A DNA stretch of 64,000 bases. It comes from Rubrivivax sp. (GTDB lineage Bacteria > Pseudomonadota > Gammaproteobacteria > Burkholderiales > Burkholderiaceae_C). Shown one piece after another: positions 5,832-63,397 of the stretch. The stretch is from the NCBI GenBank assembly GCA_027483705.1, contig JAIXTY010000045.1, positions 43,503-107,502 on the forward strand. The letters are read 5' to 3'. The number at the start of each line of letters is the position of its first letter. Within the stretch, counting starts at the first letter, position 1. The notes under the pieces were generated by a model. The model searched no databases. It was given only the letters and a program-made list of their open reading frames with translations, and was not told the DNA's origin. The translations under genes and the position numbers were made by a program.

Positions 5832-6020
5832 AGGGCGCCGTTTGCGCGATTTCAGCAGACGGAGTCATGAGACCGCCCTTGATCGGCGCCCTCGCCTGGT
5901 CGACAGCTTTTCGTCCTGACAAAACGAATCCGCGCACTTCCAGCCCTGACGACACGGAAGCCCGACCGCGCCCCGGAGCGATGGCGCCCGCAGGTCCCAC
6001 ACCCGCCCCAGCCCTCGGGT

Positions 6021-7649: not shown

Positions 7650-7679
7650 ACTATAGCACGCTCGCCGGCGGCTTCAGAA
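7650..7679 (-). promoter_or_regulatory. Sigma70 promoter candidate for tRNA-fMet
   Basis: Extended -10 TGCTATAGT (7658-7650) lies 12 nt upstream of the tRNA. A weak -35 (TTCTGA) would overlap the stop codon of the upstream giant gene. Confidence 0.55.
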
Positions 7680-10600
7680 CTGCAGCGCTGGCTCGGGCCA
7701 CCATTGGGCAGCCGGCACCGGGGGCGGATGGGCGGCGGCGGTGGCCGACAGGGCGGCCGCGGCGTGGGCGCGGTCGGCCAGCACCGGCAGGCTGCTCTCG
7801 GCGGTGCCGCCCGTCATCACCCGCAGGTAGTCCAGCGTCGCGCGGCCCGGGGCCTCGTCGGCGGGCGCGGTGCGACCGATGCCACCCCACGGTGCCGCGT
7901 CCAGCCGCAGCGCCGCCAGCGGCAGCCAGCCGGCGCCCGCCGTGGCCAAGGTGGCCGCCGACAGCGCCCCCACGGCGTCGGCCGGCAGGGCCCCGCTGGC
8001 CTCGCGCGCCGGCGCGCCGGCCACGGCCACGGCCTGGTACAGCCGCTCGCCCACCAGCACGTTGAAGCGGGTGCGGCCGTCGGCGCCGCTGTCGCGCAGC
8101 ACGGTGCCGCCGGCCTGGTCGACGTCGACCCGCGCGGCCACCGCATCCAGCGTCGCGCCGGCCTCGCTCTGGCCCGCGCCGAGCTGCGGGCCCAGGCCGC
8201 GCAGCACCAGGCGGTCGGCGTAGACATCGGCCGCGGCGTCGCTGCCCTGCTCGCGCAGCGTGCCGCCGGCCTGCAGCGTGAGGGTCGCGCCGGTGTCACC
8301 GCTGCGGGTGTCGATGCGCGACACCACCAGATCGCCCGTCGCCGCCACGCTCACGTCGCCGCGCGCGGTGCTCAGGCCCGAGCCCGCGGCCATGCGCACG
8401 GCGTCGCCGGCCTGCAGCGCCGCGGTGGCGCCCGGCGTGGCCAGGGCCAGCACGCCGGTGAGGTCGATGTCGCCCGACGCCGCCAGCTCCACGCCGCGCG
8501 CCGGCGCCATCGCCGCCAGCAGCTCGCCCTGCACCGCCAGGTCGCCCGCCGGCGCGGCCACGCGCACCTGCTCGAAGCCGGTGAAGCGCGCCAGCAGCGC
8601 CGCGTCCAGCAGCAGGGCACCGCCCGCCGCCGGCCCGCTGCCCACGCGCACGCCGACACCCTCGCCCGCCGACTGCAGCACCAGCCGGGCCGCGCTGCCG
8701 CCGGAACCCACCGTGCCCAGCGCCACGATCGAATCGGCCGTGATCTCGACGTCGCCCGTGCCCAGCACGACGTTGCCGACAATCACCTGGCTCGCGCCGC
8801 GGATCACCAGCGAGCCGCCGGTCAGCTCCACGGGCCCGTCGAAGCGCACCACGCCGCTGGCCTCGACGCGCAGCTCGCCGCTCACGCGCACGGCCTCGGC
8901 AAAGCGCACGTCGCTGGCGCCGGCCACGAGCACGCGGTCGACGATCTGCGCGCCGCCGATCACGCCGCGCAGCGTGACGTCGCCGCCGTCGCTGCGCAGC
9001 TCCAGCACATCGGCCGCGCCGCCGGCGGTGCCGTCGATGGCGCCGCCGATGACGATGTCGCCATCACCGGCCGCGCCGCCCACGCCGGCCTGCAGCACGA
9101 AGGCGCCACCCAGCCGCAGCCCGCTGTCGAGCACGAAGGCGCCCGCCTGCTGCAGCGCCGAGGCGCCCGGCACGTCCAGCACAGCCCCGGCCCCACCCGG
9201 CTGCAGCCACACGCGCGCACCGCCAAAGGCCGTGACGGCGCGGCCGTCGGCCGGCGCGCTGCCGTCCGTGAGGTCGATGTCGCCGGCGCGTGTGAGCAGC
9301 GCCACCGTGCCCGCGCCGCCGGTGGTGACGAGGTCGCTCTGCGCCGCGTCGTCCACCGCCGTCGTCGTGCCGTCGGCGCCGACGCGGTTCACGCGCACGG
9401 CCACGTCGGCCACGCGGATGCCGTCGGCCTCGTCCAGCCACAGGGCGTCGCCGGCGCGCGCGCTGATCGCGCCCACGCGCAGCTCCAGGCGCTCGGCTTC
9501 GGTGCCGATGCCGGCGCCACTCACCAGCCGCAGGCCGGTGGCCGCGACCTCGGGCGCGTCGTCGCCGGTGCCCGTGCTGTCGGTCGCCTCGGTGATGGCG
9601 CCACCGGCCACGAGCGAGACATCGCCGTTGCCGGCGCCGACGCGCGCCACGGTGATGTCGCCGCCGGCCGCGATGCGCAGCGCGCCGTTGGTGGTGTCGA
9701 TGCCGGCCCCGGCCAGCTGCGCCACGCGGCCGCCGGCCTCGATGTCCAGCGTGCGGCCGGCGCGGGCCAGCGCGATGTCGGCGGCCAGCTGCACCTCGCC
9801 GGTGGCACGCAGCGTGGCGTGGCCGGCCGAAACGCGCAGCGCCGCGCCGCTCTCCAGGTAGACGCCGGCCACGGTGGGCCCGCCACCGGCGTCGAGCAGC
9901 AGGTTGCCGGTGCTGGCGATGCCCAGGCCGTCGGCGTCGCCATCGGCCACGCTCAGGGCGCCGCCGCTGCGCAGCACCACGTTGCCGGCGGATTCGATGT
10001 CGGCCAGCGCGGCGTCTGTCAGCGCCGCGCGCGTGCCGTCGGCCGCCACGCGCTGCACGGTGACGGGGCCGACGCGGTCGATGCGCAGCGCGTCGGTCTC
10101 CTGCACGAAGAGGCCCGCGGCGCCGGTGCCGGCCACGGTGGCGGCCAGGCGGTCGACGGTGGTCTGCAGCGGGGCCGCGCCGGTGCCCGCGCCGCCGCCC
10201 GTGGCCACGAGGCGCAGCGACTGCGCGCGCACGTCGACCTCGCTGCCGCCGCTGTCGGCGATGCTGCGCGCCAGCAGGCTGACGTCACCGCCGGCCACCA
10301 GCTCGCCCAGCGTCAGCGAGCCCGTGGCCTGCAGCCGCAGCGAGCCACCGGCGCTGACGACGACGCTGCCGTCGGCCATCAGCAGGTTGGCGCCGCTGGC
10401 CAGGTCGGCGCTGGCGTCACCGCTCAGCTGCACGCGGCCCGCGGCGGCGAAGGCCAGGTCGCCCAGCGCGCGCAGCGACAACGGCCCGGCGCCGAAGAGC
10501 CCCGAGTCGACGAACACACGGCCGCCTTCGGCCTGCAGCAGCACCGGCCCGCTGCCGGCCACCAGCGCCGATGCCGGCGTGGCGCTGCCGCCGCCCAGGC

Positions 10601-13600
10601 GCAGGTCGCCGCTGCGCAGCACCAGCGCCAGCGTGCCGCCCTCGGCCACGACCAGGTCTTCCTGCGACGGGGCGTCCAGGCGCGCGCTGCTGCCGTCGGC
10701 GGCCACGCGCTGCACCGCCACGGCGGTGGCGCCGATGGTCAGTGCATCGGCCTCGGCCAGCCACAGGCCCCCGGCGCCGGCCGCGGCCGACAGCGTGGTG
10801 GCGCGCGTTTCCAGTGCGTTGGCCGCGGCGCCGATGGCGTCGGTGGCCGCGAGCTGCAGCACGCCGGCGATCACGTCCACCTCGGCATCGCCATCGGCGT
10901 CGCCGTCGCTGATGCGCGCGGCCCGCAGCGCCACGGCGCCGGTGCCGGCCTGCACCGACTCCAGCACCAGCTCGCCGCCGGCACGCGCCAGCACGGCGCC
11001 GTTGTTCGTGAGCAGGCTGCCACCCTGGGCCAGCACGAGGCGGCCGCCGGCCTCGAGGTCGAGGCTGCGCGTGGCGCCGGCCAGCGCCACCTCGGTGAGC
11101 TCCAGGTCGGCGCCGGCCCGCAGCGTCGCGGCGCCGTCGGCCACGGCGATGCGCCCGCTCAGGCGCAGCGAGGCGGCGTCGCCGTCGGCCACCAGGCGCA
11201 GCGCGCCGGCGGCGCTCACGGCGCCGGCCCCGCTGATGCTGCCGCTGGCCTGCAGCAGCAGCGCGGCGCCGCTGGCCAGGCCGTCGATCACGACCGCACC
11301 GCGCTGCGCGATGGCGATGCCGCCGCCGCTCACATCGAGCGTCAGGCGACCGACGGCGGTTTCGATGGCGTCGGCCGGCGTGCCGAAGCCGCCGCCGCTG
11401 GGCGTGGCCAGCGTCGCGTTGAGCGAGGCGGCCGTGAGGTCGGCCGCGGGGTCGGCGTCGGCCACGATGTCGCGCAGCGCCGCGGCGGTGATCGCCAGCG
11501 CGCCGGCGCCGGCGTCCACACGCGACACCGTCAGCACGCCGCCGGCGGCCAGCGTGACGTCACCGCCGCCGCTGGCGAGCGCGCTGCCGTCGGCCATCGT
11601 CAGCGCCGACGTGGCCTGCAGCCGGGCCGCGCCGCCGCCGCTGGCCAGCTGCGCCGCGGCAGCCAGGTCGAGGCGGCCGTCGCTGCGCAGCTCGAGCCCG
11701 ACGCTGTCGACGCGGCCGTTGACGGCCAGGTCGCCGGCGGCCGAGAGCTGCAGCGCACCGCCCACGCTGGCGCTGGCCAGCGCCACGGCGCCGGCCCCGG
11801 CCAGCCAGGCGCCACCACCGGCGGCCAGCGTCAGCGTGGCGGCGTCGAACGCCAGCGCATCGCCCGCGGCGCCCACGGCGCCCCCGGCGGTGATGCTCAG
11901 CGCAGCGGCCTGCAGGTCGAGCGCGGTGTCGCCGTCGCGCAGCGCGCCGCCGGCCTGCAGCGTGAGCGTGGCGCCACGCGTGTCGACGGCGCCGAGGGCG
12001 ATGTCGCCACCGGCCTGCAGGCGGCTGTCGACGGCGCCGGTGACAACGCCGCCGCGCAGCGTGAGATCACGCCCCGCCTGCAGCTGGGCGCCGCCGGTGG
12101 CCGTGGCGTCGGCCTCGATCAGCAGGTCGCGGCCCGCCGACAAGGTCAGGGCGCCGGCGCTGCTGCTCAGCGGCGCGGCCAGGCTCAGGTCGGCGGCCGG
12201 GCCTTCGGCCGCCAACGTCAATGCCGTGGCGGCCGACACGGGCGTGGCCACCGTGCCCTGCACGCTGCCCGCGGCGCGCAGCTGCAGCGCGGCGGCGCTG
12301 GCCAGGCCGGCCAGCGTGGCCTCGGCCTCGCTGCGCACGGCGGCCACGCCGTCGCTGCCCACGCGGGCCGGCAGCGCCAGCGCGTCGAGCGAGGCCAGCG
12401 CCAGGCCGTCGGCCTCGGTGGCGAAGAGGCCGCCCGTGGTGCTGCGTGCGGCCAGCGTGTCGGCGGCCAGGCGCAGCGGGTCGGCGGCGCTGCCCAGCGA
12501 CGCGGCCTCCAGGCGCAGTGTGGTGCCGCGCAGCTCGGCGCCGCTGCCACTGAACACGGCCGTCAGTGCGCCAGGCGCCCGCAGGCTCAGGCTGCCGCCG
12601 GCCTCGACCTGGCCCAGCGCCAGCACGCCGCCACCCAGCACGCGCGCCGCGCCGGTGCTGGCCCAGCGCGTGCCGTCGGCGGCGATCACGTCGCCGCCGG
12701 CCTCGATGTCGAGCGTGGCCGCGGCAAGGTCGCCGGCCGCCGTGGCCGTGAGCGCCCCGGCCGCCAGCAGCGTGGCGCTGCCCGCGGCCGTGATGCTGGC
12801 GGCCAGCGACAGCGCGCCCGGCGCCTGCAGCCGCAGCGCGCCGCCCGCCGCCACGGGCTGCGCCACCCGCAGCTCGCCGCCGGCCAGCGCCAGCACGGCC
12901 GGCCCGCCGGCCGTCAGGCCCGCCAGTGCGGCATCGGCCGGGCCGGCGGCGGTGCTGCCATCGGCCGCCACGCGCTGCACCACCAGGCCGTCGACGCGAC
13001 CGATCTCGAAGCCGCTGCTGCCGGCGTCGGCCACGCTCACGAAGGCGCCGCCGCCTGCGGCCAGCGCCAGCCGCGCCGTGGCCACGCGCAGCGCGTCGCC
13101 CGCCAGCGCGATGCCGCCGCTGCCGCCGTCCAGGCGCAGGGCCGCGGCGCTGATGTCGGGCTGTGTCGGCGCGCCCGCGGCGGTGGCGATGCCGGTGGCG
13201 CCCCGCAGGCTGGCCGTGCCGGTGCCGGCATCGACGCGGCCCAGCGTCAGCGTGCCGCCGGCGTCGATGCGCACCGGGCCGTTGCTGGTCAGCACCTGGG
13301 CGTTGGCCCCGAAGCTGGCGTCGCCGCCGGCGCGGATGTCGACGCCCTGGCCGGCAGCCGCGGTGCGCAGCGCCACGGCGGCGGGCGCCGGCACCAGCAG
13401 CGCCTGCGCCGCGACGAGGCTCAGGTGTCCGGCCACCGCGCGCACCTCGGCGCCGATTGTCAGCGTGCCACCGGTGCCGCCGGCCTGCAGCAGTGCGTCG
13501 CTGCCGGCCTGCACGGCGCCCTGCACGTCGAGCGCGCCGGCCGCCGTCGTCACGGCCAGGTCGCCGCCCGCGCGCAGCCCGGCGCTGCCAATGGCCAGCG

Positions 13601-15578
13601 CGGTGGCCTCGGCCAGCAGCAGCGCGCCGCTGCCGGCATCAGCCACCAGCGTGCCGACGCTGCTGCGCAGCGGCGTGCCCGCGGCACCGATGCCGGTGGC
13701 GGCGTTGAGCGTCACGCTCGCGGCCTCGCCGCGCAGGTTGGCGTCGTCGCCGGCCCAGCCGTCGCGGATGGCGCCGGCGGTGCTGCGCAGCTCGATGGCG
13801 CTGCTGGCCGCCACCACGCCCACCGTGAGATCGCCGGTGCTGGTGAGCGCGATGCGGCCGCCGCTGCCGGCGTCGAGCGTGACGCCGGAGAGATCCAGCG
13901 CGCCGCCGCTGGTGAAGCTCACCGCCCCGCCCGCCGTCGTGACCGCAGCACCCAGCACCAGCCCGCCCGCGCCGGCCTCCAGCGTGATGGGCGCGGCGCC
14001 GCTGGCGGTGACGCTGCCGGCCGCCGTGCTCGACAGCGCATCGGCCGCGCGCAGCAGCACCGCGCCGCCGGCCACGCTGATGGGCGCCTGCACACGCAGG
14101 TCGCTGCCGCTGCCCAGGGCCTCGAGCGTGAGCGGGCCGCCGCCGGCGATGCTGGCGCCGCGGCCGTCGAGCACCAGGCTGCCGGCGGTGGTGGCGATGC
14201 GCGCCGCCGCGGTGGCGCCGGCGTCGGTCTGCTCCAGGCCGGTGACGGTGACGCTGCCGTCGATGACCGCGGCGTCGAAGCGTGTCGTGGTGCGCGCCGC
14301 ACCCACCGTGACGGCGATGTCGCCGGCGCCGCTGTTGACGACGTCGAGCTGCTGCACCTCCACGCGCGCCAGGCTCACCCCGGTGGCGGCGTCGATGTCG
14401 AGCACCAGCGCGCGCAGCGCCTCGCTGCTGCGGCCGTCGGTGGCGACGTCGAGCGACAGCACGCGGCCGCCGCTCGTGGCCAGCTCGATGCGGTCGGCCT
14501 CGATCTCGTTGGCGATGCGGATGTCGCCCGTGGCCTGCAGGCGCAGCGTGTCGCCCGGGCCGAGGCGCAGGATGGCGTCGCGGCTGCTGTAGTCGGCCAC
14601 GTCGATGCGGCCGCCCAGCACCGTCAGCGGGCCCGGCAGCGCCGTGCCGTCGACGTTGGGGTTGGCGCCCACGCTGACGAGACCGGTGCCGTCGGCGCGG
14701 CCCACGGTGAACTGCGCAAAGCCGTCGGCGAAGGCCGCCATCTCGGTGCGGTCGAGGCTCAGCGTGGTGGGCGTGTCGCTCACGCCGGCCGGGTTGAGCA
14801 GCGCCACCGCCTGCCCCACGCTCGCCGGCCGCAGCGTGACGCCGCCGCTGCCGACGATGAGCTCCTCGCCCATGCGCAGGTCGATCTCGTCGGCCTCGAT
14901 CAGCAGGTTGCCGGGCGTGGCCGCCGAACCGGTGGCCAGCGTGAGCCGGCTGCCCGGGCCGAAGAACACCTGCGTGGCGCCGGTGATGCTGAGGCTGCCG
15001 CCCTCGCGCAGCGTGACGCCGCCGTTGAAGCTGACGACGCCGCCGGCCGTGATGCTGAGCGGCCCGTCGAGCGTGACCTCGCGGTCGAAGGTGACGTCGT
15101 CGAAGGCGATGACCGTCAGCGCCGCCAGCGGGTCGGTGCCGGCCGTGCCGTCGCCGATGGCGCCGCGGAAGCGCACGTCGCCGGCCGGGGCGAGCACCGT
15201 CAGGCGGTCGGTCGTGGCGGCGCTGTTGCCGCCCACGTAGTCGGTGCTGTCGTTGCCGATGCTGGCGTTGCCGGCGGTGGCGGTGACGGTGACGTTGCCG
15301 ACCACGCGCACCGAGTTGACGAAGTTGACGTTCGCGTCGCTGAAGTCGGTGCTCAGCACCGTGGCGGGGTCGCTGAACGGCGTGATGCCGGCGGGCGCCA
15401 GCGCCGTGCTGCCGGCGTAGGCCTCGGCCAGCGCGGCGTCGTGCGGGTCGGGCGGCAGCAGCGCCAGCACCGCGGTGCCGACGGCGTCGGCCGACAGCAG
15501 CAGCCGCGGCTCGAGGGCTTCCAGTCCGAAGGTGGAACGGACGGTGCGGCGCTCGGGGCGCGGCCGGTCAGAGCGCAA
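7674..15578 (-). CDS. Large LEPRxLL-leader secreted repeat protein (~2,634 aa), FHA/beta-helix-like
   Basis: Open frame 7674..15608 with LEALEPRLLLSAD at 15486-15524 and Gly/Ala-rich repeats (L.A.GGIG...LET....L.A.A..GG.FL.EADGL). Start placed at TTG 15578 because GGGAGG lies 6 nt upstream; GTG 15608 is the alternative. Confidence 0.88.
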   Translation of the reverse strand: MRSDRPRPERRTVRSTFGLEALEPRLLLSADAVGTAVLALLPPDPHDAALAEAYAGSTALAPAGITPFSDPATVLSTDFSDANVNFVNSVRVVGNVTVTATAGNASIGNDSTDYVGGNSAATTDRLTVLAPAGDVRFRGAIGDGTAGTDPLAALTVIAFDDVTFDREVTLDGPLSITAGGVVSFNGGVTLREGGSLSITGATQVFFGPGSRLTLATGSAATPGNLLIEADEIDLRMGEELIVGSGGVTLRPASVGQAVALLNPAGVSDTPTTLSLDRTEMAAFADGFAQFTVGRADGTGLVSVGANPNVDGTALPGPLTVLGGRIDVADYSSRDAILRLGPGDTLRLQATGDIRIANEIEADRIELATSGGRVLSLDVATDGRSSEALRALVLDIDAATGVSLARVEVQQLDVVNSGAGDIAVTVGAARTTTRFDAAVIDGSVTVTGLEQTDAGATAAARIATTAGSLVLDGRGASIAGGGPLTLEALGSGSDLRVQAPISVAGGAVLLRAADALSSTAAGSVTASGAAPITLEAGAGGLVLGAAVTTAGGAVSFTSGGALDLSGVTLDAGSGGRIALTSTGDLTVGVVAASSAIELRSTAGAIRDGWAGDDANLRGEAASVTLNAATGIGAAGTPLRSSVGTLVADAGSGALLLAEATALAIGSAGLRAGGDLAVTTAAGALDVQGAVQAGSDALLQAGGTGGTLTIGAEVRAVAGHLSLVAAQALLVPAPAAVALRTAAAGQGVDIRAGGDASFGANAQVLTSNGPVRIDAGGTLTLGRVDAGTGTASLRGATGIATAAGAPTQPDISAAALRLDGGSGGIALAGDALRVATARLALAAGGGAFVSVADAGSSGFEIGRVDGLVVQRVAADGSTAAGPADAALAGLTAGGPAVLALAGGELRVAQPVAAGGALRLQAPGALSLAASITAAGSATLLAAGALTATAAGDLAAATLDIEAGGDVIAADGTRWASTGAARVLGGGVLALGQVEAGGSLSLRAPGALTAVFSGSGAELRGTTLRLEAASLGSAADPLRLAADTLAARSTTGGLFATEADGLALASLDALALPARVGSDGVAAVRSEAEATLAGLASAAALQLRAAGSVQGTVATPVSAATALTLAAEGPAADLSLAAPLSSSAGALTLSAGRDLLIEADATATGGAQLQAGRDLTLRGGVVTGAVDSRLQAGGDIALGAVDTRGATLTLQAGGALRDGDTALDLQAAALSITAGGAVGAAGDALAFDAATLTLAAGGGAWLAGAGAVALASASVGGALQLSAAGDLAVNGRVDSVGLELRSDGRLDLAAAAQLASGGGAARLQATSALTMADGSALASGGGDVTLAAGGVLTVSRVDAGAGALAITAAALRDIVADADPAADLTAASLNATLATPSGGGFGTPADAIETAVGRLTLDVSGGGIAIAQRGAVVIDGLASGAALLLQASGSISGAGAVSAAGALRLVADGDAASLRLSGRIAVADGAATLRAGADLELTEVALAGATRSLDLEAGGRLVLAQGGSLLTNNGAVLARAGGELVLESVQAGTGAVALRAARISDGDADGDAEVDVIAGVLQLAATDAIGAAANALETRATTLSAAAGAGGLWLAEADALTIGATAVAVQRVAADGSSARLDAPSQEDLVVAEGGTLALVLRSGDLRLGGGSATPASALVAGSGPVLLQAEGGRVFVDSGLFGAGPLSLRALGDLAFAAAGRVQLSGDASADLASGANLLMADGSVVVSAGGSLRLQATGSLTLGELVAGGDVSLLARSIADSGGSEVDVRAQSLRLVATGGGAGTGAAPLQTTVDRLAATVAGTGAAGLFVQETDALRIDRVGPVTVQRVAADGTRAALTDAALADIESAGNVVLRSGGALSVADGDADGLGIASTGNLLLDAGGGPTVAGVYLESGAALRVSAGHATLRATGEVQLAADIALARAGRTLDIEAGGRVAQLAGAGIDTTNGALRIAAGGDITVARVGAGNGDVSLVAGGAITEATDSTGTGDDAPEVAATGLRLVSGAGIGTEAERLELRVGAISARAGDALWLDEADGIRVADVAVRVNRVGADGTTTAVDDAAQSDLVTTGGAGTVALLTRAGDIDLTDGSAPADGRAVTAFGGARVWLQPGGAGAVLDVPGASALQQAGAFVLDSGLRLGGAFVLQAGVGGAAGDGDIVIGGAIDGTAGGAADVLELRSDGGDVTLRGVIGGAQIVDRVLVAGASDVRFAEAVRVSGELRVEASGVVRFDGPVELTGGSLVIRGASQVIVGNVVLGTGDVEITADSIVALGTVGSGGSAARLVLQSAGEGVGVRVGSGPAAGGALLLDAALLARFTGFEQVRVAAPAGDLAVQGELLAAMAPARGVELAASGDIDLTGVLALATPGATAALQAGDAVRMAAGSGLSTARGDVSVAATGDLVVSRIDTRSGDTGATLTLQAGGTLREQGSDAAADVYADRLVLRGLGPQLGAGQSEAGATLDAVAARVDVDQAGGTVLRDSGADGRTRFNVLVGERLYQAVAVAGAPAREASGALPADAVGALSAATLATAGAGWLPLAALRLDAAPWGGIGRTAPADEAPGRATLDYLRVMTGGTAESSLPVLADRAHAAAALSATAAAHPPPVPAAQWWPEPALQF

Positions 15579-52848: not shown

Positions 52849-53026
52849 CCATGCGGCCCTTGCCGATGCCGGCGACCACCGCCAGCTTCGCCAAGATGAG
52901 TGGACCCAATGTAGGCGCTGGTTCCCGCCTCGACACTGGAATTTTCCCGTTGGCCCTGGCGAGCCGCAGGCAGTACGCTCAACCGCATCTTCCCTGCCTT
53001 GCGCGGCCTCGTGCCGCCCCATCGCC

Positions 53027-53773
53027 ATGTTTGAAAAGGTCGTCCCCATCAACCGCGAACGGCATGCCTCGACCCGGGTCAAGGACATCACCAGCTTCGC
53101 GTTCGCGTCGTCGTTCCACGTGGCCTACGTGACGCTGCACGAGTTCTCGCGTGCCGCGGGCGTCTACCCGGTGGTGTTCGTGGAAGACAAGGACAAGGAC
53201 CAGTTCCGCCCGGTGGCGCTGCTGGGCCTGGAGGCCGGCGAGAACCTGTTCATCGGCGCCGGCGGGCGCTGGGAGGCGGGCTACGTGCCGGCGATCATCC
53301 GCCGCTACCCCTTCGCGCTGGCCGGCACCGGCGAAGAGGGCCGCTACACGATCTGCATCGACGAGGGCAGCGAGCTGGTCTCGCAGACCGAGGGCCAGCC
53401 CCTCTTCGACGCGAAGGGCGAGCCCACGGCCGTCATCGACAACGTCAAGCGCTACCTCTCCGAGCTGCAGCAGATGGACCTGCTCACGCGCGAGTTCACG
53501 CAGTACCTGAGCGCCCACAACATGCTCACGCCGCTGAACATGCGGGTGCGCGAGAACGACAAGGTCAAGAACATCGCCGGCTGCTGGGTGGTGAACGAGG
53601 AGCGCCTGAACGGCCTGTCGGACGAGCGCTTCCTGGAGCTGCGCACGAAGCGCTTCCTGCCGGCCATCTACGCCCACCTGGTGTCGCTGTCGCAGATCGA
53701 GCGCCTGGTGACGCTGAAGGACAAGCGGCATGGCTCGCCGGCAGCGCCGATGGCGAATGCCGCCGCGGCGTGA
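53027..53773 (+). CDS. sapC: SapC family protein
   Basis: MFEKVVPINRERH..., EFSRAAGVYPVVF, PVALLGL..GENLF, W...YVPAIIRRYPF, V.EERL..LSDE, IYAHLVSL. Confidence 0.9.
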   Translation: MFEKVVPINRERHASTRVKDITSFAFASSFHVAYVTLHEFSRAAGVYPVVFVEDKDKDQFRPVALLGLEAGENLFIGAGGRWEAGYVPAIIRRYPFALAGTGEEGRYTICIDEGSELVSQTEGQPLFDAKGEPTAVIDNVKRYLSELQQMDLLTREFTQYLSAHNMLTPLNMRVRENDKVKNIAGCWVVNEERLNGLSDERFLELRTKRFLPAIYAHLVSLSQIERLVTLKDKRHGSPAAPMANAAAA

Positions 53774-55334: not shown

Positions 55335-56172
55335 AGCCCCCACCACCCGCGGCCTGCTGCGAGGCCTGCTGCCCGACCTGATGCTGCTGGCCGCGGGCCT
55401 GGCGCTGGCCGGTACGGCCGCGGCGCAGGAGTTCGTCGGCATCGTGCACGCCCGCCACGCGCTGACGCTGACGACCTCGACACCCGGCCTCGTGGCCAAG
55501 GTGCTGGTCGAGCCCGGCCGGCGCGTCGAGGCCGGGGCCACGCTGATCCAGCTCGACGACCGGCTGCAGGCCACCGAGGAGCAGCGCCGCCGCGTCATCG
55601 CGCAGGACGACAGCGAGCTGCGCGCCACCGAGCAGCGGCTGAAGATCGTCGAGCCGCTGGCCGAGGACGCGCGGCGCCTGGGCAGCACGCCCGGCGCGCT
55701 GTCGCGCGAGGACGCGGCGCGCACGGAGCTGGACCTCGTCGCCACGCGCGGCCGCCTCGCGCAGCTGCAGGCACAGAAGGCGCGCGAGCAGCTGGAGCTG
55801 GCCGCCGCCGAGCAGGAGCGCGCGCAGCGCCGCGTGATCGCGCCGGTGGCCGGGGTCGTCGTCAAGATCGACATCGACGCCGGCGAATGGGCGCGCCCCG
55901 GCGAACCGCTGGTGCAGCTGGTGGACGCCAGCGTGCTGCACCTGCGCGTCAACCTGCCGGCTGCGGTGGCGCGCACGCTGCGCGAGGGGCAGGCGCTGAA
56001 CGTCGGCTTCGAGCCGACGCTGGGCCTGCCGCCGCAGCCGGGGCAGGTGAGCTTCGTCTCGCCGGCGGTCGACGCCGCCAGCGGCCTGGCCGAGGTGCGC
56101 GTGCGCTTCGCCAACCCGGGCGGCCGCGTGCCGCCGGGCATCAAGGGCCTCGTCAAGTTGGGGGCGCGGTGA
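55324..56172 (+). CDS. Periplasmic adaptor/membrane fusion protein (HlyD/RND MFP) with predicted signal peptide
   Basis: Lipoyl halves GLVAKVLVEPGRRVEAGATLIQLDD and IAPVAGVV, central coiled coil, VSPAVDAASG..EVRVRFANP..RVPPG. Confidence 0.88.
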   Translation: MNPEAPTTRGLLRGLLPDLMLLAAGLALAGTAAAQEFVGIVHARHALTLTTSTPGLVAKVLVEPGRRVEAGATLIQLDDRLQATEEQRRRVIAQDDSELRATEQRLKIVEPLAEDARRLGSTPGALSREDAARTELDLVATRGRLAQLQAQKAREQLELAAAEQERAQRRVIAPVAGVVVKIDIDAGEWARPGEPLVQLVDASVLHLRVNLPAAVARTLREGQALNVGFEPTLGLPPQPGQVSFVSPAVDAASGLAEVRVRFANPGGRVPPGIKGLVKLGAR

Positions 56173-58079
56173 ACGCCGAGCGCCCGCGCCCGCTCGACCA
56201 CGCGCTGCCCGGCGGCGTGCGCGAGATGAGCGCGCTGGAGCTGATCGCGGCGTTGCAGCGGCTGCGCCATGCGTCGATGGCCGACGACGCCGCGCGAGCC
56301 GCCGTCTGGGCCGAGCTGACCGCCGGCGTGATGCGGCTGGCGCGAGCGCGCAGCGCCTGGCTGCTCGACGGCGAGGTGCTGCTGGCCCACGCGGGCGAGG
56401 CCGCCGACGGCACGCTCGCCGACGAGTCCTGGGCCCCCGAGCTGCCGGCGCTGCTGGCGCGCGCCGCGGCGCAGGGCTTTGCCACGATGCCGGCGCGCAG
56501 CCGCGCCGGCACCGCGCAGTGGCTGGCGGCCGTGCGCCAGAGCCGGCTGCCGGCGGGCTGGATGCTGCTGGCCATCCCCGACAGCGAACGGCCGCAGCTC
56601 AACGAGCTGCTGCTGCGCGCGCAGCTGGTGGCCGACCTGCCCGCGCTCTCGGCCGCACCGGCGGCGGCGGAGGCCGCTGTCACGCCGCCGCCCGTGGCCG
56701 ACGCCGCGGCGGCCGACCCGCTGGCCGAGGTCGGCCAGCAGCTGGCGCGGCAGACGCAGTTCGGCGCCGCCGCCATCGCGCTTGTCAACACGCTGGCGCA
56801 GGCGCTGGGCGCCGAGCAGGTGCTGCTGGCCTGGCGCGGCGCGGCCGGCAGCCTGGCCACGGTGGCCATCAGCCACCGCGAGCGCTTCGATCGCTTTGCG
56901 CACCCGGTGGTGCTGAGCGAAGACGCGCTCGAAGAGGCGCTGCACCACGACGGCGGCGTGCTCGTCGTGGCCGGCACCGCGCCCGAGCACCTGGTGCAGA
57001 CGCCGGCCCACGGCCTGCTGCAGGAGGAGCTCGGCGCGCGCCACCTGCTGACGCTGCCGCTGGCCCGCCACGACGAGGCCCCGGTGGCCGCGCTGCTGCT
57101 GGTGTTCGACGGCACGCAGCCGCCGCCCGAGCCGGCGGCGGTGGCGCGGCTGCAGCAGGCGCTGGCGGCGCAGCTGCCGTGGCTGCAGACGCTGCAGCAG
57201 CAGGGCCAGCCCTGGCCGGCGCGGCTGCTGGCCGCGGCGCGCGAGCGCGCGGCCCTGTGGCTCGGGCCCGGGCGCCTGGGCTTCAAGCTCGGAGCCCTGG
57301 TGCTCGGCCTGGCGCTGCTGTACGGCATGTTCGCGAGCTGGGAGTACCGCGTCAGCGCCAGCGCGCAGCTGGCCACGGACAGCATGCGCGTGCTCGGCGC
57401 CATGTTCGACGGCCGCGTCGAGGAGGCGCGCGCCAGCGCCGGCGACGCCGTGGCCGAAGGCCAGCTGCTGGCGCGGCTGGACACGCGCGAGCTGCGCCAG
57501 CAGGAGAGCGACGCCGCCGCCGAGCTCAAGCGCCACGTCGCCGAGGCCGACAAGGCCCGCGCCGGCGGTGCACTGGCCGACCTGGAGGTGTCGGCGGCGC
57601 GTGCCGCGCAGGCCGAGGCGCGGCTGGCGCGCGTGCGCGAGCAGATCGCGCAGGCCGAGTCGGTGGCGCCGTTTGCCGGCGTCGTCGTCGAGGGCGAGCG
57701 CAAGGAGCTGCAGGGCGCCCCGGTGCGCAAGGGCGACAAGCTCTACCGCGTCGCCCGCGTCGAGGGCCTGTACGCCACGCTGCAGGTGGGCGAGCGCGAC
57801 GCGGCCCGCGTGCGCGTGGGCGCCACCGGCGAGCTGGTGCTGCTGGCGCGGCCCGACGAGCGCATGGCGCTGAAGGTGGTGTCGGTGGTGCCGGTGGCGC
57901 AGACCAAGGGCACCGAGGGCAACCACTTCCTCGTGCGCGCCGAAATCGCCGGCACCCCGGCCGCCTGGTGGCGCCCGGGCATGAGCGGCAATGCGCGCAT
58001 CGACGGCGGGCACGAGCCGGTGATCTGGATCCTCACGCACCGCGTCATCGACACGATGCGTCTGTGGCTCTGGTGGTGA
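56169..58079 (+). CDS. GAF-like domain + TM + HlyD-type membrane fusion protein
   Basis: GTG at 56169 overlaps the previous stop (GTGA). Cytoplasmic GAF-like region (LLTLPL...PVAALLL), one TM (LGALVLGLALLYGMF), MFP (AMFDGRV...GDAV.EGQLLARLD; APFAGVV; WRPGMSG.A.I). Confidence 0.82.
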   Translation: MNAERPRPLDHALPGGVREMSALELIAALQRLRHASMADDAARAAVWAELTAGVMRLARARSAWLLDGEVLLAHAGEAADGTLADESWAPELPALLARAAAQGFATMPARSRAGTAQWLAAVRQSRLPAGWMLLAIPDSERPQLNELLLRAQLVADLPALSAAPAAAEAAVTPPPVADAAAADPLAEVGQQLARQTQFGAAAIALVNTLAQALGAEQVLLAWRGAAGSLATVAISHRERFDRFAHPVVLSEDALEEALHHDGGVLVVAGTAPEHLVQTPAHGLLQEELGARHLLTLPLARHDEAPVAALLLVFDGTQPPPEPAAVARLQQALAAQLPWLQTLQQQGQPWPARLLAAARERAALWLGPGRLGFKLGALVLGLALLYGMFASWEYRVSASAQLATDSMRVLGAMFDGRVEEARASAGDAVAEGQLLARLDTRELRQQESDAAAELKRHVAEADKARAGGALADLEVSAARAAQAEARLARVREQIAQAESVAPFAGVVVEGERKELQGAPVRKGDKLYRVARVEGLYATLQVGERDAARVRVGATGELVLLARPDERMALKVVSVVPVAQTKGTEGNHFLVRAEIAGTPAAWWRPGMSGNARIDGGHEPVIWILTHRVIDTMRLWLWW

Positions 58080-58086
58080 CGCCGCG

Positions 58087-60255
58087 ATGAGCAGCGCCAC
58101 TGTGCTCTCCGACACCTGGTACCAGGTGGCCGACGCGCGCGTGGCGCTGCTGCCCACGGTGCGGGCGCAGCCGCAGGTCTACCGCGGCCAGCGCTGGATG
58201 GTGCTCGAAGACCCGTACAGCAACCGCTTCTTCCGCGTCACGCCCGAGGCCTGGGCCTTTCTGCGCGCGCTGGAACGCGGCAAGAGCGTGGGCCAGACCT
58301 GGCTGGAGCGCGCCGCCGCGCAGCCCGAGAGCACGCCGGGGCAGGACGACGTGGTGCGGCTGCTCTCGCAGCTGCACGTGGCGAGCCTGCTGCAGTTCGA
58401 CGAGGCACCGCAGCACGAGGCCATCTTCGAGCGTGCGCAGACCACGAAGCGGCGCGAGCGCCTGGGCAAGCTGCTGGCCTTTCTGTACGTGCGCGTGCCG
58501 CTGTGGAGCCCCGACCGCTGGCTCGACGGCCTGGCGCCGCTGATCCGCCTGTGCACGGGCCGCGCCGCGGCGCTGGTGTGGCTGGGCGTGGTGCTGGCCG
58601 GCGTGGCCGCGGTGGTGCAGCGGCCCGAGGCGCTCAGCGCCGCCGGCCAGGGCCTGCTGTCGGTGGCCAACCTGCCGTGGCTGTACCTCTCGCTGGCCCT
58701 CGTGAAGGTGCTGCACGAGCTGGCGCACGCCTTCGTCTGCAAGCGCCACGGCGGGCATGTGCCGAGTGCCGGCGTGATGTTCCTGATCTTCACGCCGCTG
58801 CCCTATGTGGACGCCAGCGCCAGCTGGGGCCTGCGCAGCAAGTGGCAGCGCGCCTTCGTCGGCGCCGCCGGCATGCTGATGGAGCTGTTCCTGGCGGCCA
58901 TCGGCGCGCTGGTGTGGGCCGCCACCGGCGAGGGCCTGGTCAACAGCCTGGCCTTCAACGTGATGGTCGTCGGCTCGGTGAGCAGCCTGCTGTTCAACGG
59001 CAACCCGCTGCTGCGCTTCGACGCGTACTACATCCTGTCCGACCTGGTGGAGATGCCCAACCTGTACCAGAAGGCGCAGGCGCAGTGGCTGCACTACGGC
59101 AACCGCTTCATCCTGGGCCTGAAGGACAGCGTCGAGCCGGCCACCGACGCCACCGAGCGCCGCTGGTACGTGGTCTACGGCGCGCTGGCCTTCTTCTACC
59201 GCATGCTGATCACGGTGACGGTGCTGCTGTTCGTGCTCGACCAGTGGTTCGCCGTCGGCGTGCTGATGGCCTTCACGACGCTGGTGATGCTGGTGCTGAT
59301 GCCGGCCTCCAAGCTGCGCACGCACCTGGCCTCGCCGGCCTTCGAGCGCGCGCGTACGAGGGCGCTGGCCGGCGTGGTGGCGGTCGTGGGGCTGGCCTGG
59401 GCGGTGGTGGCGCTGCTGCCGCTGCCGCACGCGGTGCGCCTGCCCGGCGTGCTGGAGGCCGAGCGCAGCCAGCCCTACTACGCGCTGACGCCCGGGGTGC
59501 TGGTGGAACTGGCCGTGCGCCACGGCCAGACGGTGGCGCGCGGCGAGCTCATCGCGCGGCTGGTGAACCCCGATCTCGAGCACGCCATCGCCACGACGCG
59601 GCTGCAGATCGCCGAGACCGAGGCGCTGCAGCGCGCCGCGCTGACGCGCACCCCCTCCGAGCTGGCGCCGCTGGCCGGGCGGCTGGCCGCGCTGCAGGAG
59701 CGCGTCGGCGAGCTGCAGGCCATCGCCGCGCAGCTGGAGCTGCGCGCCGCCCACGACGGCGAATGGGTCGCGCCCGCGCTGCACGAGCGCCGCGGCGGCT
59801 GGATCGACCGCGGCCAGCCGCTGGGCGAGCTGGTCGACCGCTCGCGCTGGCGCTTCACGGCCGTGTTGCCGCAGAGCCAGGCGGCCGAGCTGTTCGGCCC
59901 GGTGCGGCCCGACGCGATGGGTGGCGCCGAGCTGCGCCTGGCCAGCCGCCGCGGCGAGTCCATCGGCGTGGCGCGCCTCGTCGTCGTGCCCTACCAGCGC
60001 CAGCGGCTGGCCTCGCCGGCGCTGGGCTTCGGCGGCGGCGGCGAGGTGGCCACGCTGCCGACCGACGCCAGCGGCCTGACGGCCAGCGAGCCCTTCTTCG
60101 AGATCCGCGCCGAGCTCGCCGAGCCGCGGCTGCCCGAGGCGCTGGCCTACCAGGGCCTGTCGGGCGTGCTGCGCGTACCGGTGGCGCCGCGGCCGCTGGG
60201 CGACCGCCTTGGCGACGCCTGGCGGCAGATGCTGCAGAAGAGGTACGCGCTGTGA
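58087..60255 (+). CDS. PqqD/RRE-like domain + M50 (site-2) intramembrane peptidase + HlyD-type MFP fusion
   Basis: HELAH (58714-58728), AAG..MEL, FNGNPLLRFDAYY (58996-59030), several TM segments and C-terminal lipoyl/MFP motifs. N-terminal WMVLEDP...FFRV...AW.FL..L...DVVRLLSQL...SLL. Confidence 0.85.
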   Translation: MSSATVLSDTWYQVADARVALLPTVRAQPQVYRGQRWMVLEDPYSNRFFRVTPEAWAFLRALERGKSVGQTWLERAAAQPESTPGQDDVVRLLSQLHVASLLQFDEAPQHEAIFERAQTTKRRERLGKLLAFLYVRVPLWSPDRWLDGLAPLIRLCTGRAAALVWLGVVLAGVAAVVQRPEALSAAGQGLLSVANLPWLYLSLALVKVLHELAHAFVCKRHGGHVPSAGVMFLIFTPLPYVDASASWGLRSKWQRAFVGAAGMLMELFLAAIGALVWAATGEGLVNSLAFNVMVVGSVSSLLFNGNPLLRFDAYYILSDLVEMPNLYQKAQAQWLHYGNRFILGLKDSVEPATDATERRWYVVYGALAFFYRMLITVTVLLFVLDQWFAVGVLMAFTTLVMLVLMPASKLRTHLASPAFERARTRALAGVVAVVGLAWAVVALLPLPHAVRLPGVLEAERSQPYYALTPGVLVELAVRHGQTVARGELIARLVNPDLEHAIATTRLQIAETEALQRAALTRTPSELAPLAGRLAALQERVGELQAIAAQLELRAAHDGEWVAPALHERRGGWIDRGQPLGELVDRSRWRFTAVLPQSQAAELFGPVRPDAMGGAELRLASRRGESIGVARLVVVPYQRQRLASPALGFGGGGEVATLPTDASGLTASEPFFEIRAELAEPRLPEALAYQGLSGVLRVPVAPRPLGDRLGDAWRQMLQKRYAL

Positions 60256-61883
60256 TGCCGGCCGACGCGCGCATCGCCACCGCCGCGGCCACGCTGCGCG
60301 CCGCCGGCACGCCCGTCGACGCGGCCGTCGAGGCCGCGGCCCGGCAGCTGTGCCGCCGCGGCGCGGTGGCGCTGGTGCGCGCGCACGACCGGGCGCTCGC
60401 GCTCGCGCTGGCCGCCGTGGCCTGGGCCGCCGAGGTGCACCCGGTGCACCTGGTGGCCGCCAGCGACGACGAGGCCCTGGCCCTGGGCGGCCGCGTGGCG
60501 CCCTGGCTGCGCAGCTGTGGCGTGCCCGACGGCGCCGTCGAGCCGACGACGCTGCGCCGCCTGGCCGCCGCCCGCACGCAGGCCGAGCGCGCGCTGCGCA
60601 AGCCCGGTGGCGAGCCGGCGGCACGGCCACCCACACACGCGCTGCTGATGGACGACCTCGACCGCCTGCTCATCGACGAGGCCGCCGCCTCCATCACGCT
60701 GGCCGTGCCCGACGACGCCACGGGCCTGGTGCCGGCACTCGCGTGCGCCGCCGCGCTGGCGCGCGAGCTGCGGCCCGACGATCCCGGCGACGACACGCTG
60801 CAGCCGCACGAGCTCGCCGCGCTCGACGCCGCGGCGGCCAGCCTGCCGCCGGTGTGGCGCTCGCGCGAGCGGCGCGAACGGCTGCTGCGCCAGGCCTGGC
60901 ACGTGCGGCGCCTGCGCCGCGGCACCGACTACGATCTCGCGCCGCAGGGCCAGCTGCTGTTCGACGACGCCCTGATGGCGCGCCTGCCCGACCGCGGCTT
61001 CGCCAGCGGCCTGACGCAGGCGCTGCAGCTGCACCTGGGCCTCGCGCCGTCGCCGGTGGCGCGCACCGTGGGCCGGCTGCACGTCGACCTGCTGCTCGAG
61101 CCCTACCCGCGGCTGGGTGGCGTGGCGCCGTCGCTGCACGGGCTGGCGCGCGAACTCGCGGCGCGCCACCGGCTGCGGGTGCATGACTCGCCCCCCGACA
61201 CGTCCGACGCACCCGTGCCGTGGCCCTGGCGCTGGTGCGCCGGGCACGCCGAGGCCGAGGCGCAGATCGACGCCTGGCTGCAGGCCGCGGTGGACGCCGG
61301 GCCGGCCGGTGCATCGCGGCTGCTCGTGCTGCGGCGCGCCCAGGCGCTGGTGCACTGGGCGCCGCGCGTGGCGGCGCTGCGCGCCCTGGGCCTGGCCGTC
61401 GGCGTGGCCGTCGACGGCCACCACTCGCCGCTGCCGCCGGCACTGGCGCTGCGCGAACTGCCGGCCGGCCAGCCGTTGGCGCTGCTGTTCGCCGAGCCGC
61501 TGGAATCGCTGCGCGCCGAGCGCGCCTGGCAGGCCCGCGCCGCCGAGCAGGCCGGCCCCGTGACCGAAGCCGTGCAGCTGCTGGTGCCGCCGCTGGCGCT
61601 GGTGCGCGAGCAGCTGCCCGTGCTGGCCGCCGCCCTGCCGCTGCTCGACCGGCTGCTCGCCCCCGTCGGCGCCCCGCGCCGCACGCTGCACGGGCTGGCC
61701 TTGCGCCTGGCCCGCCGGGTCGCGGCCTGGCGCGGCGGCCGCCTGCGCCGCCAGCAGGGCGAGCGGGAACGCCGGCTCGGCCAGCAGCTGAGCTTCACCA
61801 CCGGCCAGCGCAGCGCCACCCCGGTGGCCCCGTGGCGCCCGGGGCCCGCCCTGGCCGCCGAGGCGCCGCCGTCCCAGCCTTGA
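60255..61883 (+). CDS. Degenerate SecA-like protein (SecA_DEAD paralog, 542 aa)
   Basis: ATG in a TGATG overlap. LLMDDLDRLLIDEA resembles IVDEADSILIDEA; RRGTDY..., RLPDRGFASGLTQAL, YPRLGG and ESLRAERAWQARAAEQ align with SecA segments. No Walker A. This is the C-terminal part of the track ORF 58503..61883. Confidence 0.72.
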   Translation: MPADARIATAAATLRAAGTPVDAAVEAAARQLCRRGAVALVRAHDRALALALAAVAWAAEVHPVHLVAASDDEALALGGRVAPWLRSCGVPDGAVEPTTLRRLAAARTQAERALRKPGGEPAARPPTHALLMDDLDRLLIDEAAASITLAVPDDATGLVPALACAAALARELRPDDPGDDTLQPHELAALDAAAASLPPVWRSRERRERLLRQAWHVRRLRRGTDYDLAPQGQLLFDDALMARLPDRGFASGLTQALQLHLGLAPSPVARTVGRLHVDLLLEPYPRLGGVAPSLHGLARELAARHRLRVHDSPPDTSDAPVPWPWRWCAGHAEAEAQIDAWLQAAVDAGPAGASRLLVLRRAQALVHWAPRVAALRALGLAVGVAVDGHHSPLPPALALRELPAGQPLALLFAEPLESLRAERAWQARAAEQAGPVTEAVQLLVPPLALVREQLPVLAAALPLLDRLLAPVGAPRRTLHGLALRLARRVAAWRGGRLRRQQGERERRLGQQLSFTTGQRSATPVAPWRPGPALAAEAPPSQP

Positions 61884-61909
61884 TCACCGCCCTGAACCAG
61901 GAGCGCACC

Positions 61910-63397
61910 ATGACCGCATCCACCGTCCACCGGCCCCGCCTCCCGCTCCGCGCCCTGCCGCTGCGCCGCTGGCGCTGGGCCGCCGCCGGCACGCTGCTGG
62001 CCCTGGCCGCCGGCTGCGGCGGCGGGGGCGGCGGCGGCGACCCGGTCCCGCCGACGCTCGGGCCGCTGGCCGTGGCGGTGTCGGACACCGCCGCCGGCAG
62101 CGGCACGCTGACCGTGCGCCTCACGCTGCCGGCCAACGCCGCCGGCCGCAGCGTGACGCTGCCCTGGCGCACCGCCGAGCTCGGCAGCGGCACCGGCTTT
62201 GCCCGCGGCGGCGCGGCCTGCGGCGGTGACGTCGACTTCGTGGCGGTCGCGGCCGGCAGCCTGCAGCCGCCCGCGCTCGACGCCACCGTGACGGTGACGC
62301 TGTGCCCGAACGCCACGCTCGAGCCCGACGAGCGCTTCGAGATCCAGTTCGACTGGAACGGCGCCACGCAGCGCGTGGAGGCGCTGATCGTCAACGACGC
62401 GCCAGGCGGCCTGAACGACACCGGTGTGGCGATCTGCCTCGACGAGACCGGCGCCGTGGTCAGCTGCAGCGTCACGCGGCTGGCGGGCCAGGACGCCGTG
62501 CTCGGCCGCGACGCGCGCGCGCTCACCAGCGGCGCGGCCGACGGCCGCCTGGGCTTTGCCTACGAGGCCGTGGGCGGCTGCACGCGCGACCGCGTCACCG
62601 GCCTCGTGTGGGACGCCGCCAGCAGCGCCACCACGGCCGCGGCGGCCGAGGCCGCGGTGGCCGCGGCCAACGCCGCCGCGCGCTGCGGCGCCACCGACTG
62701 GCGGCTGCCCACGGTGGCCGAGCTGGCCTCGCTGGTGGACAGCGGCGCCGCCGCGGCGCCCTACATCGGCGCCGCGCTCGGCAGCACGCCGTCGGCGGCG
62801 CACTGGAGCGCCGAGGCCTACGCCGGCGACACCCGCGCACGCTGGGTGGTGAACTTCGAGAACGCCGCCATCGGCTTCGAGACCGCCACCAACCCGCTGG
62901 CCAAGCCGGCGGCCGTGCGCCCGGTGCGCGGCGGCACGGCCGCGGCCGCGCCCGGCTGCACCGACGCCAGCCCGGCGCGCTACGTGGACCACGGCAACGG
63001 CACCGTCACCGACACCGGCACCGGGCTGATGTGGATGCAGTGCACCGAGGGCCTCTCGGGCAGCGCCTGCGCCACCGGCAGCGCCACCGCCTACCGCAGC
63101 TTCGGCGACGCGCTGTCGCGGGCCCAGGCCGTCAACGCCGACCGCGCCGGCGCCGGCCGCGGCTTCGGCGACTGGCGCGTGCCCAACCGCAACGAGCTGG
63201 CCTCGCTGGTGCTGCGCAGCTGCCATGCCCCGGCGATCCAGCGCACGCGCTTCCCCGGCACGCCCGCGCTCAGCGCCTGGAGCAGCAGCGCGGCACGCGC
63301 CGGCTTCGCCTGGTACGTCGACTTCGCCGACGGCAGCGTGGCGCCCGGCGGCGTCAGCGGCGACCGCGTGCTGCGCCTGGTGCGCGCCGGCAACTGA
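61910..63397 (+). CDS. Lipoprotein with a Calx-beta-like domain and two DUF1566 (Lcl C-terminal) domains
   Basis: CAGGAG RBS; lipobox LAAG-C followed by poly-Gly; ATLEPDERFEI...IVND; RDRVTGLVW..DWRLPTVAELASL and DHGNGTVTDTGTGLMWMQC..DWRVPNRNELASL..LRLVR. Confidence 0.88.
   Translation: MTASTVHRPRLPLRALPLRRWRWAAAGTLLALAAGCGGGGGGGDPVPPTLGPLAVAVSDTAAGSGTLTVRLTLPANAAGRSVTLPWRTAELGSGTGFARGGAACGGDVDFVAVAAGSLQPPALDATVTVTLCPNATLEPDERFEIQFDWNGATQRVEALIVNDAPGGLNDTGVAICLDETGAVVSCSVTRLAGQDAVLGRDARALTSGAADGRLGFAYEAVGGCTRDRVTGLVWDAASSATTAAAAEAAVAAANAAARCGATDWRLPTVAELASLVDSGAAAAPYIGAALGSTPSAAHWSAEAYAGDTRARWVVNFENAAIGFETATNPLAKPAAVRPVRGGTAAAAPGCTDASPARYVDHGNGTVTDTGTGLMWMQCTEGLSGSACATGSATAYRSFGDALSRAQAVNADRAGAGRGFGDWRVPNRNELASLVLRSCHAPAIQRTRFPGTPALSAWSSSAARAGFAWYVDFADGSVAPGGVSGDRVLRLVRAGN

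Follow-up and report, generated by a model that had tools for sequence, protein, structure and literature searches.

We analysed a 64-kb stretch of DNA (64,000 nucleotides; hereafter the window, to whose positions all plain coordinates refer) that lies inside a 140-kb contig (C98) of an 88% complete Rubrivivax sp. genome (GCA_027483705.1). The window encodes two giant proteins with N-terminal LEPR-XLL leaders and, divergent from them, a seven-gene operon that probably specifies a leader-guided export and maturation machine for both giants, operating without an ATP-binding cassette (ABC) pump. At the centre of the operon stands a fusion of a predicted recognition element of ribosomally synthesised and post-translationally modified peptides (RiPP recognition element, RRE), an M50 protease and a periplasmic adaptor of the membrane fusion protein (MFP) type, referred to below as M50-MFP. 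The locus represents a variant form of a module known from computational work; its leader receptor and peptidase are predicted, and its motor is dispensable.

Two giant proteins bear LEPR-XLL leaders

Giant A occupies 15568..52824 on the minus strand, with a likely GTG start at 52824 and 12,418 aa (longest open reading frame (ORF) 15568-53091, 12,507 codons), and giant B occupies 7674..15578 on the same strand, with a likely TTG start at 15578 behind GGAGG and 2,634 aa (longest ORF 7674-15608, 2,644 codons). The two ORFs overlap end to start, share a GC content at third codon positions of 0.96 and are both real; both products are likely cargo. The NF012209 (LEPR-8K) model matches each N-terminus above its cut-off (E 2e-8 for giant A, E 7e-8 for giant B), and no further match was found across the source genome. 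The leader motif lies at 52672..52737 (-) in giant A, with its L-E-A-L at 52720-52731, and at 15465..15530 (-) in giant B (C98:58967-59032). As the initial annotation had observed, both proteins lack a Sec-type signal: the first 80 residues contain no hydrophobic core (maximum 19-residue hydropathy 0.92 in A and 1.38 in B), and neither protein contains a single cysteine.

Pfam and NCBIfam scans of the giants' bodies returned almost no matches. Giant B, a Gly/Ala-rich repeat protein, is paralogous to the C-terminal region of giant A, which it matches at 43% over 522 aa and at 39% over 619 aa. Giant A itself carries a few RTX-like nonapeptides and ends in an aromatic-acidic motif (15568-15610, minus strand). 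C-terminal motifs of this type, [FY][DE]xW.E.L.L, are found in giants of the close clade: 8 of the 33 C-termini compared there have one, as do giant A and locus L156 (loci L027, L031, L037, L038, L042, L048, L055, L067 and L156), and giant B ends in a looser form. The motif may act as a second signal, as an anchor or as a site for a chaperone.

M50-MFP is a predicted leader receptor and leader peptidase

The M50-MFP gene (58087..60255, plus strand) is single-copy in the source genome and encodes an RRE (residues ~8-106), an M50/site-2 protease domain (HELAH 210-214, NGNPLLRFD 304-312) and an MFP domain (445-700), all modelled at an average predicted local distance difference test (pLDDT) score of 90.1. 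The N-terminal domain matches the lasso-peptide leader-binding RRE 6jx3 (Z 8.7, root-mean-square deviation (rmsd) 3.6, 84/85 residues aligned) and the middle domain matches RseP 7w6z (Z 9.4, rmsd 3.2, 132 aligned) and a SpoIVFB-like fold (Z 8.7), where Z values near 8-9 denote modest likeness by the structure-comparison tool's own guidance; the C-terminal adaptor is MexA/MacA-like (Z 14.8). The three-strand/three-helix PqqD fold that marks an RRE is present, and some homologues carry PF05402. The protease domain combines HExxH and NxxPxxxxD within a multi-transmembrane domain, and its zinc ligands are conserved, by a strict pattern, in 119/120 close and 144/150 distant homologues. Among NCBIfam models the best match is the daptide RRE-M50 protease NF041824 (E 3e-48), at a score of 165 against a cut-off of 300, and an Atlas query with an M50-MFP homologue returned its own family only.

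We modelled M50-MFP residues 1-420 together with zinc and 45 leader residues. The complex scored 0.82, compared to 0.02 for the best control, on a scale whose mark is reached by 116 of 157 solved pairs and by 2 of 215 mismatched pairs; runs share at least 82% of contacts, and the pLDDT of the partner is 58-59. The most confident contacts pair the L-E-A-L of the leader with RRE strand 47-51, and the interface includes HELAH and NGNPLLRFD. Leader-binding RREs take up their leader by beta-addition to strand 3, and the model predicts such a pairing here. The model supports tag binding by the RRE, and M50-MFP is thus predicted to be both leader receptor and leader peptidase. A close precedent comes from daptides, in whose leader ELExMEAP the residues L(-7) and M(-4) are reported, in the available text, to be needed for recognition by the MpaB RRE (bioRxiv 10.1101/2023.03.08.531785 / PMC10885120); the spacing of these two residues equals that of the two LEPR leucines.

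The leader and the cassette co-occur across genomes

We sampled 400 genomes of the same family, scoring up to 20 LEPR candidates per genome and taking E<1e-98 as a close M50-MFP. Close M50-MFP genes occur in 67 genomes, distant ones alone in 31 and LEPR-8K matches in 55. LEPR-8K is present in 51 of the 67 genomes with a close M50-MFP, compared to 4 of the 333 without one; among the 55 LEPR-positive genomes, 54 contain an M50-MFP of some kind. A phylum sample of 300 genomes, in which the 12 same-family genomes were taken from the family sample, gave a similar picture: M50-MFP was found in 70, and all 31 LEPR-positive genomes are among these 70 (23/27 with a close M50-MFP, 8/43 with a distant one only, 0/230 M50-negative). 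The co-occurrence that the initial annotation had set as its check therefore holds at both levels.

The genes are also neighbours. Fifty of 69 LEPR hits lie on the same contig within 70 kb of a listed M50-MFP, with a median LEPR frame of 4,018 aa; as two M50-MFP candidates were scored per genome, distances from LEPR to M50 are lower bounds. Three further hits adjoin cassettes missed by this listing, and two giants have no cassette in the surrounding 20 kb and one elsewhere in their genomes. A planctomycete genome (G689, locus L083) has 13 LEPR-8K matches in proteins of 234-10,137 aa, which suggests that one machine there serves many cargoes and is consistent with service in trans. We rejected the idea of secondary SecA genes moving with orphan LEPR genes in the absence of a cassette, as the three complete cases proved to be full cassettes. 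The distant type, described below as a sister subfamily, occurs alone in 43 of the 300 Pseudomonadota genomes.

The operon encodes adaptors and an outer-membrane channel

All seven genes lie on the plus strand with intergenic gaps of -17, -11, -4, +7, -1 and +26 nt, in agreement with the divergent, coupled operon of overlapping or near-adjacent genes first proposed. They encode, in order, a SapC family protein (53027..53773; SapC E 7e-74), a TolC/OEP outer-membrane channel with an N-terminal hydrophobic signal (53757..55334; OEP E 4e-35), a short adaptor of the resistance-nodulation-division (RND) type (55324..56172; TIGR01730 above cut-off, hydrophobic segment 11-29), a protein with GAF-like domain(s), one transmembrane segment (370-388) and an MFP (56169..58079), M50-MFP, a SecA-fold protein of 542 aa that is a predicted pseudo-ATPase (60255..61883) and a putative lipoprotein with a double Lcl_C (DUF1566) domain (61910..63397; Lcl_C E 7e-51). 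The profile scan that the initial annotation had called for yielded these family matches together with HlyD-type MFP domains in three operon genes and Peptidase_M50 (E 1e-7). As to its GAF-like label, the window copy has no Pfam GAF match, but aligns (32% over 503 aa) with a homologue whose corresponding stretch is a Pfam GAF domain.

Against TIGR01843, the HlyD-type adaptor of type I secretion systems (T1SS), the three adaptors score 18-34 bits with a cut-off of 209. All nine ORFs, giants and operon, are intact, including the 37-kb one. The operon genes include no modification enzymes, and the leaders are carried by the giant proteins, not by short precursors. A promoter scan returned 0 sites, and terminators were not in excess.

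Two further SapC-family genes are unlinked to the cassette (C98:128300-128953 and C284:4869-5540), and SapC is therefore not specific to secretion; one of them sits behind what we take to be a TonB-receptor-like gene among presumably halogenase-like genes. The region directly beyond giant B (3840-7238) holds a Fic-domain gene and a gene of lower GC (~63%) for a Schlafen group-3 helicase, a neighbourhood as at an island edge or a defence/toxin-antitoxin spot.

Related loci keep the cassette and have no ABC exporter

We surveyed the best 80 of at least 586 related loci, many on short contigs and often with short flanks. Their hosts are Pseudomonadota, Thermodesulfobacteriota, Campylobacterota, Verrucomicrobiota, Planctomycetota and others, and 15 of the records with matches are plasmids. 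Homologues of the GAF-MFP are present in 78 loci, of the SecA-like protein in 70, of the short MFP in 59, of TolC in 46, of SapC in 29 and of the Lcl lipoprotein in 13, the last two of which look more like accessories than like core parts. With at least 2.2 kb of downstream sequence, 58 of 59 loci have a SecA-family gene after M50-MFP; it is missing at that place in an Omnitrophota locus (L093). Forty-one loci span 15 kb or more, and 26 of them have a LEPR motif or a long ORF within their 10-kb flanks. No ABC exporter was found in the 80 loci (three ABC matches are soluble or importer ATPases without a membrane domain), nor was any RND, major facilitator superfamily (MFS) or ABC pump or any regulator.

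A sister subfamily, of which we retrieved seven loci, has its genes in the order large repeat protein, TolC, MFP, short MFP and M50-MFP, with no SecA or ABC gene nearby. The three cargo N-termini seen there read ALEPRxx(F/L)D, two of them with DUF4347. The sister cassettes (L140-L147; G157, G266, G258, G003, G118, G356 and G126) adjoin DUF4347, cadherin or Ig proteins.

The SecA-like protein has lost its ATPase motifs

The protein encoded downstream of M50-MFP has no Pfam or NCBIfam match in the window copy, yet the SecA-like label given at the outset was right as to fold: its homologues carry PF07517, its model (pLDDT 90.6) finds SecA structures as all top Foldseek matches (best E 3e-18, TM-score 0.63), and its preprotein cross-linking region is kept. 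What that label missed is that the ATPase motifs are all absent, with Walker A (GEGKT), the Walker B glutamate (DExD) and motifs V/VI replaced; in 67 proteins from related loci Walker A is present in 63, Walker B in 63 and motif VI in 60. Judged from these motifs, the window protein is a predicted pseudo-ATPase. An assembly break divides the housekeeping secA between two contig ends (C120, C152); its Walker A is intact.

In the M50 tree, loci with an intact SecA surround the window clade, which has 100% support and comprises one truncated locus besides six dead copies. A second loss of the ATPase motifs is seen in Roseovarius marisflavi (L098:12806-14596), in a distant clade, and its position on the M50 tree marks it as independent, so that by motif content the ATPase appears to have been lost twice. 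The SecA tree, where Roseovarius is a very long branch, groups it with the other dead copies and gives no support to independence. Within one clade, at least 12 sequences retain the dead form as an open frame, with identities of 32-80%. Of the 67 close-M50 genomes in the family sample, 47 were tested and 46 of these gave an extra SecA-family match, and no secondary SecA was found among the 31 distant-only genomes. As the ATPase is dead in two lineages and absent from the sister subfamily, it is optional, and the invariant core is the protease-adaptor, the adaptors and TolC.

A model for leader-guided export, and its alternatives

In the machine that we favour, the RRE would bind the LEPR tag, with the i, i+3 leucines of LExL lining up as an added beta-strand next to RRE strand 47-51; the residues that come after LExL (EPRVLLSADPV...) are predicted to lie in the M50 site. 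The fused protease would cut just downstream, near R/VLLS by analogy with daptide leaders. The inner-membrane entry may be built from the transmembrane segments of GAF-MFP and M50-MFP, assembled as oligomers beneath the adaptor tunnel, with M50-MFP as the presumed translocation pore, and export would proceed N-terminus first through three adaptors and TolC. The dead SecA-like subunit may act as a holdase or targeting adaptor, or may be fading, and the drive could conceivably come from co-translational feeding, the proton-motive force or extracellular folding of beta-repeats. A broader claim, for which our confidence falls a little short of even, is that the window represents a hitherto undescribed secretion class with RiPP logic, in which an RRE-protease clips the LExLExR leader and feeds megadalton proteins N-first through adaptors and TolC; we propose equally tentatively that this class is widespread in Gram-negative bacteria, has no ABC, RND or MFS pump and, since its SecA-like ATPase may be dead or missing, no dedicated ATPase in its core, and is possibly co-translational.

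Several observations weigh against export by the cassette itself. The score of the complex model may partly reflect solved RRE-leader and SpoIVFB-substrate complexes, and the model used our own alignments and zinc, a setting outside the score calibration. We know of no M50 structure that forms a through-pore for a polypeptide. Fifteen of the 41 loci of at least 15 kb have no giant inside their 10-kb flanks, a LEPR match is missing from 16 of the 67 close-M50 genomes (several of them fragmented), one LEPR-positive genome (G380) has no M50, related genomes are not independent, and the phylum sample is weighted to a few genera, so that Fisher values overstate the association. The aromatic-acidic motif shared at the C-terminus might serve as a second signal. 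An LssB-type T1SS ABC protein with its own HlyD is encoded elsewhere in the genome, and a T1SS adaptor scores above cut-off in 61 of 68 cassette genomes. For the LEPRxLL giants of Chlorobium, the available text of Kuzyk et al. (bioRxiv 10.64898/2026.03.19.712371) describes periplasmic retention and proposes C-terminus-first export, and our literature search found no secretion, cleavage or knockout data for the Rubrivivax locus.

Two of the alternatives also send the giants out of the cell, by other doors. The giants might cross SecYEG with the housekeeping SecA and the SecA-like adaptor, leaving RRE-M50 as a private peptidase and the adaptors and TolC to act from periplasm to outside only. Such a two-step route needs no new pore, and it agrees with the SecA-family gene that so regularly follows M50-MFP, with the cross-linking region retained even in the dead ATPase and with the Chlorobium giants, reported, as far as the text consulted goes, in the periplasm before export. 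We consider it unlikely, given that the leaders have no hydrophobic core, that the SecA-free subfamily keeps the same core and that the secondary SecA, in the part of the literature available, is described as lacking the greater part of the wing/scaffold, through which SecY is engaged. TolC-adaptor tunnels are, moreover, normally loaded from the inner-membrane face. Alternatively, an ABC T1SS acting in trans could export the giants C-first while RRE-M50 only tethers the leader and frees the protein by cleavage, like the retention/release switch of LapA/LapG. The candidate is the LssB-type ABC with HlyD on contig C310 (C310:5007-10346), which adjoins a 620-aa gene of unknown type and shows no large cargo before the contig ends; the Cys-free, Gly/Asp-rich cargo with some RTX-like repeats, the T1SS adaptors of most cassette genomes and the shared C-terminal motif fit this explanation, as does the C-first export by SapC/TolC/HlyD that Kuzyk et al. 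propose in the available text. The cassette adaptors, however, score as RND-type and not as T1SS HlyD, and the C310 ABC already has its own HlyD. With 21 candidates scored in each of the 68 cassette genomes, a T1SS-adaptor match at E 1e-30 is missing from 5; LEPR giants are encoded in 4 of those 5, whose completeness is 98-100%. This weakly favours independence of the cassette from an ABC in trans; we regard this alternative as rather improbable.

It is very unlikely, in our estimation, that the cassette is instead a sensing or processing module, concerned with regulated intramembrane proteolysis or small-molecule efflux, with the giants leaving by another route. M50 proteases are the classic enzymes of regulated proteolysis, as the likeness to RseP and SpoIVFB recalls, a GAF domain suggests sensing and the adaptors resemble efflux MFPs, but the loci contain no pump and no regulator, protease, adaptors and TolC stand next to the cargo, fused or linked to one another, and the cargo has no other export signal. 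We give scarcely any credence to a decaying locus, in which the loss of the ATPase motifs would mark a system that has stopped working. The SecA-like gene is indeed the fastest-diverging of its clade (32-40% identity, compared to 56-65% for M50) and has long branches in the SecA tree; the nine intact ORFs and the dead form kept open across relatives speak against decay, as do 20 of 35 listed differences in relatives that fall at third codon positions (p 0.003, from a partial and noisy list).

Leader-guided export by the cassette remains our preferred reading, and the claim of a distinct, ABC-less route made in the initial annotation is supported in part. No ABC transporter is encoded in the locus, none of the six ABC_membrane matches of the genome lies on the window contig, and both the co-occurrence and the 80 loci without an ABC exporter are in favour; the LssB-type ABC elsewhere in the genome counts against it. 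A TolC-family channel is present and a cognate ABC as inner-membrane component is not, and the system, not type I by definition, likely works like type I downstream of the inner membrane.

Relation to known systems

The paper named in the initial annotation exists and goes beyond what was credited to it. Kamneva, Poudel & Ward 2015 (PMC4452313) describe, in the available text, a locus of SecA_DEAD, Peptidase_M50-HlyD, GAF-HlyD and HlyD genes, with or without OEP and SapC, remark on the lack of an ABC gene, and propose M50 as the inner-membrane pore and SecA_DEAD as the ATPase; that text names no cargo, leader or RRE and reports no tests. The window has the same four-gene core, with linked M50-HlyD, GAF-HlyD and HlyD genes and no ABC, and a secondary SecA_DEAD protein without most of the wing/scaffold, as judged from its modelled fold and an alignment with intact members. 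Its SecA is predicted to be catalytically dead, which argues against the energiser role there.

The genome of Chlorobium chlorochromatii was part of the Kamneva et al. set (PMC4452313). According to the available part of Kuzyk et al. 2026 (bioRxiv 10.64898/2026.03.19.712371), its paired LEPRxLL giants Cag_663/Cag_665 share a C-terminal beta-helix, stand next to sapC/tolC and are exported and transferred to the partner cell, with no transport signal known and T1SS-like export proposed; 'M50' occurs 0 times in the main text. The Chlorobium helper genes are scattered in the genome, whereas those of the window form one cassette.

RRE and site-2 protease are joined in the daptide peptidase MpaP and the epipeptide protease EpeP, where the leader with ELExMEAP is removed (bioRxiv 10.1101/2023.03.08.531785, PMC10885120, available text), and EpeP has been proposed to export its peptide as well as cleave it (PMC10885120, available text). 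Those systems act on short RiPP precursors and have neither an MFP fusion nor TolC, and daptide clusters include ABC transporters. With classical T1SS (HlyB/HlyD/TolC, LapBCE, Campylobacter fetus SapCDEF) the window shares TolC, adaptors, SapC and a large, Cys-free, signal-less cargo; it differs in having no ABC, three RND-like adaptors, a membrane protease and an N- rather than C-terminal signal. The different giants of West-Roberts et al. 2023 carry, in the part available, SecA domains inside themselves.

The LEPR tag is the same motif as the planctomycete RRLxxExLExRxLLA / PF07595 (Studholme 2004), proposed as an export signal in 2004 and present in 52 Tuwongella proteins, including 8 of the 10 longest; the available text of PMC8567305, which gives these data, assigns it no receptor or machine, and our analysis points to M50-MFP. 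No paper linking tag, RRE-M50 and cassette turned up in a search for which subscription papers were largely outside scope. The same literature yielded no experimental study of the cassette, and its one relevant result is a small fitness defect (-0.42 log2) in co-culture of a Ruegeria pomeroyi SPO2713 secA2 mutant. In Synechococcus WH8102, SwmB reportedly depends on transporter genes downstream of it (SYNW0958/0960), which might be a copy of the cassette. Tractable hosts with the cassette are R. pomeroyi (SPO2713-2718, with its secA2 transposon mutant) and Methylobacterium extorquens AM1.

A 20-year-old orphan export motif thus gains a candidate receptor and peptidase, and the orphan cassette of 2015 gains a candidate cargo. 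The finding suggests a possible exit route for several of the largest proteins known in bacteria, the giants of the Chlorobium symbiosis among them. M50-MFP was found in 70 of the 300 Pseudomonadota genomes sampled, and related loci occur in several phyla. A SecA that is dead or missing makes it more pressing to ask where the energy for export comes from.

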